From: Longimicrobiales bacterium
GTDB taxonomy: Bacteria; Gemmatimonadota; Gemmatimonadetes; Longimicrobiales; Gaopeijiaceae
Direction of reading: 5' to 3'
Length of the DNA stretch: 64,000 bases
Assembly (NCBI GenBank): GCA_965116905.1
Contig: OZ220732.1
Coordinates: forward strand, 128,001 to 192,000
Shown here: piece after piece, positions 1 to 6,340 of the stretch
Position numbering within the stretch: the first letter of the stretch is position 1
Layout of the letters: every line of letters begins with the position of its first letter
Notes under the pieces: generated by a model
The model's input: only the letters and a program-made list of their open reading frames with translations
Told to the model about the DNA's origin: nothing
Database searches by the model: none
Translations under genes and position numbers: made by a program

Positions 1-2253
1 GATTGTGATGTCGGAGAACGGGGATCCGGACCCGTCGGAGCTCGATTCGGAACTCCATGAACGGACGGCGTCCGTCAGCACCGCCCGCTGGTCGGCGACC
101 GCGCGCACGATTGTCTGCAGCGGCGCTTCGACTTCGGTCCTGGCAGTCTCGCCGACCTGCCTCAGAGCCGTTCCCGTTTCTTCGATGCTCGTGCGCAACC
201 GGTCTCGCTCTTGCTCGCGCTGCCGCAGGATCGCCTCGCGCTCGCGGACTGCATACAGGGCGCGATCCACAGATGTGGTTTCCACCGTTTCCAGCTCCAC
301 GGGATCGAGCGGCAGGGCCAGGCGAGGACGGAAGAGCGAAGGAATGGACTCAACGTTGCGGCTCAAGCCGTCCACAACCGACTGAACGGCGTCGCGGGTC
401 GTGCGAATCTGTCCCCTGGTGTGCTTCAGGGACTGCCGGGCGGAGTTCTCGTCGATCAGGGCTCGCTTCTGCGCATCGAGGAGGCTCGCTGCCTCCTTGC
501 TGTGCTCGTCCAGCCTGGCCTCGGCGTCGCTGAGCCGTCGCTGCACCGGCGCAAGAATCCGTTCCCGATCGGGGAGCTGTTCGTCATCGCCGCGCGAAAC
601 GGGCTCCCCCAACCCGGCCGCGCGTCGCAGCCGCTCCAATGCGGCGCTCGTCTCGGAGCCGAGCTCTTCCAGCCCCTTCTCGATGTCCGCCATCGTCTGC
701 CGCGCGGATTCCTCCCGTGCCTTGAGCCCGGCCGTGGTTCTGCTCACGTCGCGCACTCGCGACCGCGCCGCCTCGAGCGCCTGCTGCGCGGCGTCAAGAC
801 CCTGATCGGGCGGCGCGGCCCACCCTTCGGGCAGGTCGCGCCAACAAACCGGACATTCGTCGCCCGTGTACAATCCGTGGGCGGCGGCAGCAGCGGCGTT
901 CCCGCGCTGCGCGGCGGCCAGCGCCGCTTCCGCCCGCCCGGCTTCGTCCTTCGCGCGACCTTCGTTGGTCGCTGCGGTGACGAGCCGCGCTGCCATGTCG
1001 GCAATCTCCTCGCGCCGCCGGGCCCGCTCGCCACGCGTCGAGAGGAGGCGGTTCAGCAATTCGTCGCACTTGTCATACAAGACTTCGACACCCGACAGGC
1101 GATCGCGGGCGGATTTGACGGCATCTCCGAGGGGCGCCTGCTGCACGGAGTGCCGCGCCAGCCGATTGTTGGCGGCATCGAGCGTTCGCAGGGAGCTGTC
1201 CGCGTTCCTGCTGGCCGTGGCCTCGTCGGCGATCAGCGCCCGCAGCGTCGCGGCGCCCTCGACGGCCCTCGCGGCCTGTTCCGGGAGCGCGTCCAGCGCA
1301 GCCAGCGCCTGTGCCACCGTCCGATTGTCGGGGCCGTCGTCGGTCGGGATGCTGTTCAGGTCGCGCTTCAGTTTGGTGTGCCGGCTCTCCAGCTCCGCTT
1401 GCTGCGCGTCGATGCGCCGCCGGGCTTCGGCTACGAGAGCAAGCCGGGCTGCGAGCTTGTCCATCGCCTCGGGCGCGACCGTCGCGTCGACGTGCTGCGC
1501 GGCCGCGATGACGGCATCGGATTGCCGCAGGGTGCCGCGCGCGTGCTCGGCCCGCTCCCGGAGTTTGGCCAGGGCCCCTGCGTGCCGAGCGGCTTCGTCG
1601 GAAAGCTTGGTCAGCCGGTCAAGATGCTGCTGCGGGTCGTCCGGCCAGCGTGCCACCCCGTCCTGCAGGCGCGCCCCGAGCGTCCTGACCTCCTGCAGCT
1701 GCCGCCCCACAGCCTCGCCTGCCGCCTCCAGATCGCCGGTGCGCCACACCTGGCGCAGGATCTCGGTGCGGTCTCTCGGTTTGTCTTCGACCAGAAGTCG
1801 TGCGAATCGCCCCTGCGGTAACACAACGGTGCGGAGGAACGCGTCGCTGTCGAGTCCGATCAGCGCTTCGATGCGGTCGTTGACCTGCCGCACTTGCTCG
1901 ACCTTCTCCAGCGTCTCTCCGCCGGGGCCGAAGCAAACCAGCTGGGCCCGGGCCGGCCGGAGTCCCCCCGCCCCCGCCCTCCGGTCCACGCGCGTGACCT
2001 CCCACTCCTGGCCGGCCACGCGGAAGCGCAGCACCACGCGCATCGTGTCCGACGTGTCGTTCATGAGTTCCTGCTTGGACCGGCCGCCTACCGAGGTCTG
2101 GCCGTACAGGGCGTAGGTCATCGCCTCAAGGATCGAGGATTTCCCCGCGCCGGTATCGCCGATGACGGCGATCTGCGTGCGATGGCCGAAATCGATCTTC
2201 GCCTCGGCCCGGAAGGACCGCAGTCCCTCAATGGAGATTCGTAGCGGGCGCAT
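1..2253 (-). CDS. sbcC: SbcC/Rad50-family SMC-like ATPase (partial, 3' end outside window)
   Basis: Absent from the ORF track because no stop lies in the window. Manual translation from ATG 2253: MRPLRISIEGLRSF...VIGDTGAGKSSILEAMTYALYG (Walker A), VVLPQGRFARLL (Q-loop), Ala/Glu/Arg-rich coiled coil, zinc-hook CPVC at 844-855. Starts 4 nt after the sbcD stop. Confidence 0.93.
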   Translation of the reverse strand, partial: MRPLRISIEGLRSFRAEAKIDFGHRTQIAVIGDTGAGKSSILEAMTYALYGQTSVGGRSKQELMNDTSDTMRVVLRFRVAGQEWEVTRVDRRAGAGGLRPARAQLVCFGPGGETLEKVEQVRQVNDRIEALIGLDSDAFLRTVVLPQGRFARLLVEDKPRDRTEILRQVWRTGDLEAAGEAVGRQLQEVRTLGARLQDGVARWPDDPQQHLDRLTKLSDEAARHAGALAKLRERAEHARGTLRQSDAVIAAAQHVDATVAPEAMDKLAARLALVAEARRRIDAQQAELESRHTKLKRDLNSIPTDDGPDNRTVAQALAALDALPEQAARAVEGAATLRALIADEATASRNADSSLRTLDAANNRLARHSVQQAPLGDAVKSARDRLSGVEVLYDKCDELLNRLLSTRGERARRREEIADMAARLVTAATNEGRAKDEAGRAEAALAAAQRGNAAAAAAHGLYTGDECPVCWRDLPEGWAAPPDQGLDAAQQALEAARSRVRDVSRTTAGLKAREESARQTMADIEKGLEELGSETSAALERLRRAAGLGEPVSRGDDEQLPDRERILAPVQRRLSDAEARLDEHSKEAASLLDAQKRALIDENSARQSLKHTRGQIRTTRDAVQSVVDGLSRNVESIPSLFRPRLALPLDPVELETVETTSVDRALYAVREREAILRQREQERDRLRTSIEETGTALRQVGETARTEVEAPLQTIVRAVADQRAVLTDAVRSWSSESSSDGSGSPFSDITI

Positions 2254-2257
2254 CCGA

Positions 2258-5366: not shown

Positions 5367-6340
5367 GCGGCCTCCTCGTCGAGGTTGTGCTGCATGACGG
5401 CTTCTCGAACGGCACGCACCGCGAGACGCGAGTCGCCCAGGAGGTGGTGAAGGTGCTCTTCGAGCGCCGCGACGGGGGTCAGGTTTACAGGCGCGCGGGC
5501 GTTGCGGTGCGGCGCCGAAGCGAAGGCCGGAATCCACCTCGCGGCGCGGTCGACCGTTGCAACGGCCTGGCCGCTGCCCGAACTCGCGGGCACCTCCAGG
5601 CGCGCGATCCCCGCCCATGGTCCCGCCCAGGGACCCGCGTCGCCCACCCGGATGTAGCACGCGTAGCGCTCGTCCTTCATGGCGAACAGGCTTGTCCGCT
5701 CGCCTACGGCCAGGCGCGGTACGGCCTGCCAGTGCTCGACCGCCAGCGTGCGCCGATGATGGGTCTTTACGTACCCGACCACGTGCGTCGCGCGGCTGCG
5801 ACGCATACCGTGCAGCGGCCCATCGAAAACGACCATCCAGTCGTCCGCCACCAGGCCGTCGGCGATGTCTGCCTCGGTGTCCCGCATGAGGCGCTGCAGG
5901 TGCTGCGACGCCGCGTGGGGTTCCTCGCTGTCGACCGAAAGGGGCGTCCAGCGCCACCCTCCAGGATGCGGTCTCAGCCGCACCTGCTGCCCGCCGGAGA
6001 AGATCACCGCGCGACCAATCTCCGCGTTTCGGATGACTGCCGGGCCGTCCGGACCGATCAGGACCGCGCCCGCCCCCCACGCTCCCGCGAGCCCGGTGAT
6101 CGTTTCCCCCTCCGCGTTCGTGTGGGTGAGGTGGGCCTCGGTTCGCCTCACTCCGTCCACGAAGCAGAGGTGAACCGGTGGACCCGCGTCCGCAGGCTGG
6201 TGAATCCGGAAACGGCCTCCGTCCTCCACAATCCGGCACTCGACCGTGTGCTCATCCTCCTCGTCGGCGCGAAAGCCGGCGCCATGGGACACGTCGAAGG
6301 GTTCGACGCCGATGAAGGGGCGGCTCGCGGCAACGGTCAT
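5363..6340 (-). CDS. nurA: NurA-like RNase H-fold nuclease
   Basis: FVDGVRR, VVFDGPL, VGYVKTH and C-terminal RAPVNLTPVAALE motifs. Translationally coupled to herA. Confidence 0.78.
   Translation of the reverse strand: MTVAASRPFIGVEPFDVSHGAGFRADEEDEHTVECRIVEDGGRFRIHQPADAGPPVHLCFVDGVRRTEAHLTHTNAEGETITGLAGAWGAGAVLIGPDGPAVIRNAEIGRAVIFSGGQQVRLRPHPGGWRWTPLSVDSEEPHAASQHLQRLMRDTEADIADGLVADDWMVVFDGPLHGMRRSRATHVVGYVKTHHRRTLAVEHWQAVPRLAVGERTSLFAMKDERYACYIRVGDAGPWAGPWAGIARLEVPASSGSGQAVATVDRAARWIPAFASAPHRNARAPVNLTPVAALEEHLHHLLGDSRLAVRAVREAVMQHNLDEEAA

Follow-up and report, generated by a model that had tools for sequence, protein, structure and literature searches.

In the archaeal Sulfolobales and Thermococcales, herA, mre11, rad50 and nurA form one operon, as passages of three papers describe (PMC3326311, PMC13748450, PMC2288612), and archaeal Mre11 binds HerA, according to one of them (PMC2288612). 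Among bacteria, the passage of one study on Oceanithermus places sbcD-sbcC downstream of nurA-hepA, and takes this as a late recruitment in one genus (PMC5448004). Here we analyse a stretch of 64,000 nucleotides (the window; C1:128001-192000 of the single-contig 4.2 Mb genome of a Longimicrobiales bacterium, phylum Gemmatimonadota), which carries a nurA-herA-sbcD-sbcC operon on its minus strand. The same four families are co-encoded as in the archaeal operon, and the same four genes as in the nurA-hepA-sbcD-sbcC locus of Oceanithermus profundus, compared by gene context alone. For both NurA and HerA of the window, the best match in sequence and fold is the NurA-HerA of Deinococcus radiodurans (7F6D, 7WRW, 7WRX), which performs 5' end resection in vitro in the experiments described in the relevant part of its report (PMC9960219).

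What bacterial NurA-HerA does is not settled: the two species studied so far, the only ones, gave weak or opposite knockout effects, and in neither is SbcCD linked. In the Thermus experiments described in one passage, loss of hepA raises UV sensitivity (PMC5448004). A 2026 review, in its passage on bacterial nurA, finds no stable four-gene synteny (PMC13748450); our data contradict this across much of one phylum and in records from actinobacteria and cyanobacteria. The sequence-only reading from which we started had called the lineage uncharacterised, and our literature searches agree, finding no study of the operon in Gemmatimonadota, of exchange between its types, or of a natural loss of the HerA pore arginines; the four-gene bacterial layout itself is already in print (PMC5448004).

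Operons of this kind are known but have been little studied; the one described here does not have archaeal sequences, nor does it provide the only resection route of its genome. With slightly more confidence than doubt, we read it as an accessory, bacterial-type DNA-end-processing (repair) module that stands beside AddAB and RecJ, at a site once held by a divergent copy. Invariant catalytic residues, a near-universal single copy in the genus, ordinary flanking genes and the vertical descent of a distant version of the operon (type C, below) speak for this reading.

Results

Operon types and exchange in place

Of 401 genomes of the phylum, 288 gave a HerA homologue, with three candidates scored per genome: 36/70 genomes of the window's family (f1), 160/166 of family f4, 80/95 of f5 (a count that takes in the unpublished genome G191), 6/30 of f7 and 0/26 of f8-f12. 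Eighty of the 113 negatives stayed negative when re-searched with a type C query, in a search run without a positive control. The Pfam NurA model proved too insensitive for the phylum survey (6/151) and was replaced by profiles made from the loci.

The operons group into four types. Type A, that of the window, has nurA first and a HerA 66-96% identical to the window's; type B has nurA last and a HerA 41-45% identical; type C HerA is 26-29% identical, and type D is a small group. Separate trees of all four genes give this same grouping with a single exception (L099), so the genes travel as a unit. The exception (G152:C22:14000-32000) begins with a nurA of type A and continues with herA-sbcD-sbcC of type B, and this hybrid suggests that NurA and HerA of different types may be compatible.

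Forty distinct genomes of the genus were typed by HerA (38 carry one): 25 have type A only, 11 type B only, two both and two neither. Both double carriers are 6-7% contaminated, and in one of them (G003) the two copies lie on one contig. Some loci duplicate genomes that also bear G numbers, which makes the locus counts partly non-independent. Types A and B use the same three chromosomal sites (Table 1). The flanks around them consist mostly of genes for transport and metabolism and stay 81-88% identical as far as the operon edges; between the operons themselves, similarity is limited to short patches, of which the longest has about 490 nt at 68%. In an rpoB tree built for 30 of the 40 genomes, at least five changes of the A label are required by well-supported branches, and the near sisters G018 (B) and G007 (A) differ at the same site. 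The rpoB and HerA trees, made by a quick method and midpoint-rooted with long branches, name no donor and give no order of events beyond that told by the stub described below. Type A is also present in 5/201 Spirochaetia and 5/101 Latescibacterota genomes at 72-75% identity, and monophyly of the HerA of the window's family is rejected (approximately unbiased test, p-AU 3e-40; 33 selected rows). The type A copy of the window is horizontally exchanged.

The direction of replacement can be read at the window site. Directly upstream of nurA lies a stub of the 5' end of a type B herA (Table 1), which scores 25.7 bits on a profile of type B HerA N-termini, the best of 820 shuffled regions reaching 6.9 bits. 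In the DNA alignment the window tracks type B herA to about position 6349 and then changes to nurA; stub and switch together indicate that type A displaced type B here. L029 and G007 have a clear stub, L019 and L103 a decayed one. Among eight type A loci with full upstream sequence, the old start leads into an ATGA overlap with nurA in six and is joined to nurA in the same frame in two. No remnant of type B nurA was found downstream of type A sbcC in 36 regions. The stub is likely a translational-coupling leader for nurA. Further upstream, the hexamer TATCTT is a putative promoter element, a sigma-70 consensus scan having found no full promoter, and the inverted repeat is a probable terminator that the terminator scan did not report. 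The sequence-only reading had set the span of the operon at 1..6340, which reaches the nurA start but omits the stub and the promoter-like elements at 6337-6466. As causes for incoming copies landing on a resident one, the short shared sequence patches and a toxicity of mixed complexes are candidates.

Type C has a conserved housekeeping neighbourhood, its HerA tree follows the host family, and 18 of 23 loci held all four genes within the stretch examined; in f4 and f5 the type C operon looks vertically inherited.

The four genes and their products

The reading frames of nurA, herA, sbcD and sbcC and their tight coupling were reproduced as first described: the herA start overlaps the nurA stop through GTGA, and gaps of 10 nt and 4 nt separate herA from sbcD and sbcD from sbcC. 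The operon had also been called complete, and the four genes are indeed real; sbcC, however, exceeds the window and ends at C1:127086, 915 nt before window position 1, so that its Walker A, Q-loop and CPVC hook are inside the window and its signature, Walker B and H-loop outside. All four genes are single-copy in the genome. Compared with 10 relatives, their ratios of nonsynonymous to synonymous substitution (dN/dS) are 0.08-0.38, which indicates purifying selection. Operon G+C content is 0.70-0.71 (0.83-0.90 at third positions), comparable to that of addA (0.70, 0.87), and thus gives no compositional sign of recent arrival.

NurA scores 26.7 bits on PF09376 (cut-off 21) and matches D. radiodurans NurA (7F6D) at E 3e-18. 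Its predicted model (predicted local distance difference test, pLDDT, 83) has 7F6D as best Foldseek match (E 6e-17), followed by Thermotoga 1ZUP (E 3e-14) and, far behind, archaeal Sulfolobus 2YGK (E 6e-4); the first gene thus encodes the RNase H-like fold expected of it. D62, E156, D173, K192, R282 and E294 are invariant in 40/40 type A rows, and D62, K192 and R282 are equivalents of D. radiodurans D53, K201 and R309.

HerA has no Pfam or NCBIfam match. It matches D. radiodurans HerA (7F6D) at E 7e-107, and a phmmer search at E up to 1 did not match it to archaeal HerA. Its model (mean pLDDT 64) has 7WRW as best Foldseek match (E 6e-43), a fold comparison that shows the barrel and the RecA-like domain. 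Walker A K169/T170, D210 and Walker B D467/E468, which correspond to D. radiodurans K175/T176, D220 and D487/E488, are invariant in 88/88 rows, and the deviant Walker A (SGISGVATKT) is common to the D. radiodurans protein. Unlike in D. radiodurans, nurA-herA of the window shares an operon with sbcD-sbcC.

SbcD scores 134 bits on TIGR00619 (cut-off 77.65) and 36-48 bits on archaeal Mre11 models, and all five Mre11 phosphoesterase motifs are present in the alignment. SbcC reaches 194 bits on TIGR00618, below the cut-off of 478.5, and 44-95 bits on archaeal Rad50 models; AAA_23 and SbcC_Walker_B are over cut-off. It is a split ABC ATPase with a coiled coil and a central CxxC hook (CPVC at residue 467, window 855-844). 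E. coli SbcCD (6S6V) is the best PDB match for both subunits (E 2e-28 for SbcD), with the Mre11 motifs, ABC ATPase motifs and CxxC hook in common. To our knowledge, it has no NurA or HerA partner in E. coli, and E. coli was negative for NurA in the control profile search.

Family models, structure matches and motif alignment thus agree with the identities first assigned, zinc hook included, with NurA and SbcD over their model cut-offs, SbcC in part and HerA identified through the Deinococcus structures. The label archaeal-style, given at the same time, fits the gene content, all four genes lying in one tightly coupled unit, but not the sequences, which are bacterial-type (Deinococcus NurA and HerA, bacterial SbcD and SbcC models). 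The archaeal comparison is one of model and structure scores, the trees holding no archaeal sequences. The gene order of type B in relatives is that of the Sulfolobales, and the window order nurA-herA-sbcD-sbcC differs from it. Unlike the archaeal operon, the quartet is non-essential, many relatives being without it, and its sequences are remote.

Table 1. Positions of the operon genes and start-region elements in the window, and the chromosomal sites occupied in the genus
Feature	Position	Strand	Details
nurA	5363..6340	(-)	ATG start; 325 aa; bacterial-type RNase H-fold nuclease
herA	3543..5366	(-)	GTG start; 607 aa; Deinococcus-type HerA ATPase
sbcD (Mre11-family nuclease)	2258..3532	(-)	TTG start; 424 aa
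sbcC, 5' part (Rad50-family ATPase)	1..2253	(-)	ATG at 2253; whole protein 1055 aa
Stub of type B herA 5' end	6337..6405	(-)	22 codons; stop overlaps nurA start (ATGA)
-10-like hexamer TATCTT	6418..6423	(-)	12 nt before stub start; common to type B loci at the site
G+C-rich inverted repeat	6430..6466	(-)	after upstream TonB-dependent receptor gene; common to type A and B loci at the site
Site 1			between TonB-receptor gene and Sel1 gene; A or B
Site 2			between SDR/aminoacyl-tRNA synthetase block and nfuA; A or B (B inverted)
Site 3			after smc and DAHP synthase gene; A or B

Other end-repair genes

The sequence-only reading had proposed resection independent of RecBCD and AddAB. For this genome the proposal is not supported. 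Adjacent AddB-like (1047 aa) and AddA-like (1130 aa) genes lie at C1:238.7-245.1 kb, both with a PD-(D/E)xK nuclease domain and the second with a UvrD helicase domain; their best NCBIfam matches are AddA and AddB, below the curated cut-offs. RecC was not found in the genome, and recA, lexA and recJ are present elsewhere in it. All 28 family genomes examined, with or without the operon, have an AddAB-type nuclease domain. D. radiodurans, by contrast, was negative for this domain in the control search. These searches used PF12705, since the AddA model TIGR02785 matched all 80 genomes, UvrD helicases being matched as well; because PF12705 misses its E. coli control at E 1e-8, RecC was given a search of its own.

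The archaeal quartet has the role of main resection route, according to the passage of one paper (PMC3326311). That the operon has such an AddAB-independent role in the window genome is largely refuted, and we hold it very unlikely, the missing RecC notwithstanding. The idea is a better fit for the distant type C operon of f4 and f5. There type C is nearly universal, and of 40 carriers, 13 have the AddAB-type domain, three more have RecC and 24 have neither. However, 16 of 21 f4 and f5 genomes without HerA also lack the domain (RecC was searched in carriers only). A trade-off between operon and AddAB was therefore rejected at the level of genomes and holds at family level only. In f4 and f5, the near-fixation of type C where AddAB and RecBCD are mostly undetected raises the question of how the operon-less genomes resect breaks.

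No sbcD of the genome other than that of the operon passes the cut-off; a second sbcCD amounts to no more than two remote pairs, in which a metallophosphoesterase gene is followed by a large ATPase-like frame (C1:446973-450946 and C1:501326-504186; L165, L166). The first of these carries AAA_27 and presumably resembles YhaO/YhaN-type pairs. A second LexA-like gene lies at C1:3061639.

Pore residues, inserts and rival explanations

Several observations weigh against the reading as an accessory end-processing module. At the position of D. radiodurans R495 the HerA of the window has Ala475, and at that of R552 a two-residue deletion; both equivalents are absent in 40/40 type A HerA rows, and the 120 nearest homologues are all short-looped at R552, with Arg at the R495 position in 0 of 119 scored. 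About half of the family genomes are without such a HerA, which makes the operon dispensable. Internal inserts occur in 9/32 complete type A loci against 1/18 of type B. No SOS-type or RecA-NDp-type motif was found upstream of the operon in the window. Bacterial knockouts, in the passage of one report that treats them, yield modest or even improved damage resistance (PMC9960219). In addition, plain repair genes would not usually be swapped repeatedly or carry defence-like inserts. Four patterns of DNA-damage promoter motifs were tried; they had no match in the window and 0-5 matches among 41 type A regions, and most of the five fell within coding sequence upstream. No dyad shared with lexA or recA upstream regions was found beyond G+C-rich noise.

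In D. radiodurans HerA, alanine mutants of R495 and R552 abolish 5' resection, as the mutant experiments described in the same report indicate (PMC9960219). Type B HerA keeps the two equivalents (18/18 and 17/18), type C also lacks both, and the ERR motif is lost in all type A rows. This weakens the notion that the protein works exactly like the D. radiodurans one; the assignment to the Deinococcus-type family is unaffected. Taken with the invariant catalytic residues and purifying selection, the missing arginines point to a complex that would be active, with a remodelled pore, and accessory to AddAB. A rival explanation is that type A HerA has ceased to be a processive motor on double-stranded DNA and serves as an ATP-gated scaffold, which would trigger nicking by NurA where SbcCD has found an end or structure, long-range resection being left to AddAB. 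The intact ATPase and NurA residues, the lost pore arginines and ERR motif, and the presence of AddAB in the genome would suit such a scaffold, as would the cutting that Deinococcus NurA-HerA retains without translocation in the assays of that report (PMC9960219). We nevertheless consider it improbable. Type C is near-fixed where AddAB is mostly lacking although it is also without both arginines, so the family tolerates other solutions, and type A has many arginines of its own: 26 basic positions are conserved in type A HerA but not in type B, and R515 and R534 among them, near the pore loops, may compensate for R495 and R552. The HerA model is too weak for placing pore residues.

The inserts and the exchange bear on another rival, in which the operon is a barrier that degrades free ends of phage and plasmid DNA, and phage-encoded inhibitors select for divergent A/B replacement at the same site. 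We regard such a role as doubtful, yet less so than the scaffold. Changes of type between near sisters, a type A that is patchy yet close across phyla, and remodelled DNA-contact loops in type A HerA would be expected of it. The genes inserted in or adjacent to type A operons match PDC-S01, PDC-S11, DrmC-like, AAA ATPase and PD-Lambda-5 models, a transposase and HicB. The insert count left out five incomplete loci and dropped four duplicate or truncated ones, and it compares the operon types only with each other. The 2026 review holds that viral DNA is the main target of degradation by bacterial NurA-HerA, and gives no data for this in the passage concerned (PMC13748450). The quartet occurs outside the phylum in a Nonomuraea record, a Streptomyces plasmid and a cyanobacterial plasmid, the second of these beside a TIGR02678/TIGR02680/DUF2397 cluster.

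Against a barrier stand the window operon itself, which is free of inserts among transport and metabolic genes plus Sel1 and Fic, and the commonest type A insert family, whose 19 copies scattered over the window genome imply that some insertion at the operon is background. PADLOC has no model that matches NurA or SbcD, and its HerA match is weak (E 7e-5). The Sir2-HerA and DUF4297-HerA anti-phage systems have the HerA fold in common with the window protein (Foldseek E 1e-15 to 1e-18), but the latter is only 11-14% identical and lacks a Sir2 or DUF4297 partner. Homologues are rare in mobile elements, being found in only 4/72,556 plasmid and 2/50,697 phage records. Type C inserts, present in 14/18 loci, are mostly one or two conserved genes, and the three examined have no PADLOC match. 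An operon both universal and vertically inherited had been named in advance as the outcome that would speak against defence. Type C in f4 and f5, common and vertical, is such an outcome, but type A, exchanged and with defence-like inserts, is not, and for type A a defence role stands as a doubtful possibility.

Bolder, and slightly less likely than the barrier, is a reading in which type A serves sponge-associated bacteria as a mobile and interchangeable cassette for destroying DNA ends; it would move between phyla, evict the resident copy time and again, capture its promoter, have a rebuilt pore and gather defence genes. The labels of the metagenome-assembled genomes of relatives are presumably linked to sponges.

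Side observations on inserts and mobile copies are as follows. The 19 scattered homologues are DUF4143 AAA ATPases. Short extra copies of the 3' end of type A herA lie beside DUF4143 ATPase genes at G004:C73:17731-17970 and G221:C2:1978906-1979139, G221 being otherwise type B, and may mark entry or exit of cargo at the herA-sbcD junction. In the type A locus L034 (9925-13018), sbcD-sbcC is missing from the 8 kb after herA, and an opposite-strand methyltransferase and its partner match PD-Lambda-5 models. The Streptomyces plasmid (L108, NZ_CP134205.1) has the order herA-sbcD-sbcC-nurA, with nurA annotated as hypothetical. Marinitoga camini virus 1 (L110, KP836355.1) carries nurA-herA without sbcCD.

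Neighbouring genes

Directly downstream of sbcC lie a Fic gene and a Sel1-repeat gene (L001 13238-14895). On the other side, two similar TonB-dependent receptor genes (6496-9633 and 11060-13951, minus strand) flank a periplasmic binding protein-like gene (9440-10990), and this trio (window 6496-13951) also precedes either operon type in several relatives. In one RNA run labelled sponge metagenome (metatranscriptome), contigs of a close strain span the operon and its three junctions; these may derive from library DNA and are not used as evidence.

Discussion

The four-gene layout is common in bacteria and already in print, and the basic operon is no surprise. Iyer et al. (2004) and Constantinesco et al. 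(2004) reportedly deal with the gene neighbourhoods of herA, and bacterial quartets may already appear there. The added value lies in the in-place takeover, the cross-phylum type A clade and the altered pore.

In the accessory end-processing module that we favour, SbcC-SbcD would find and nick blocked or hairpin ends, as known families do. The HerA ring would then bind a NurA dimer, in a 6:2 complex as in the Deinococcus-type family, and spend ATP to present the DNA end, and NurA would trim mainly the 5' strand, leaving a tail for RecA. To judge from the genomes, cells of the genus keep one copy, either variant presumably doing the job, and type A probably entered the 5' end of a type B herA, capturing its promoter and start.

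If type A were instead a mobile cassette, NurA-HerA-SbcCD would be repair machinery drawn into an arms race against inhibitors made by phages, and its translocation would be unlike that of Deinococcus HerA. The A/B pair constitutes a natural experiment: the two HerA versions are 41-45% identical and follow the same promoter region, and the pore arginines essential in Deinococcus are kept in type B and missing from type A. Comparing them would bear both on the mechanism of translocation and on the question of repair versus defence.

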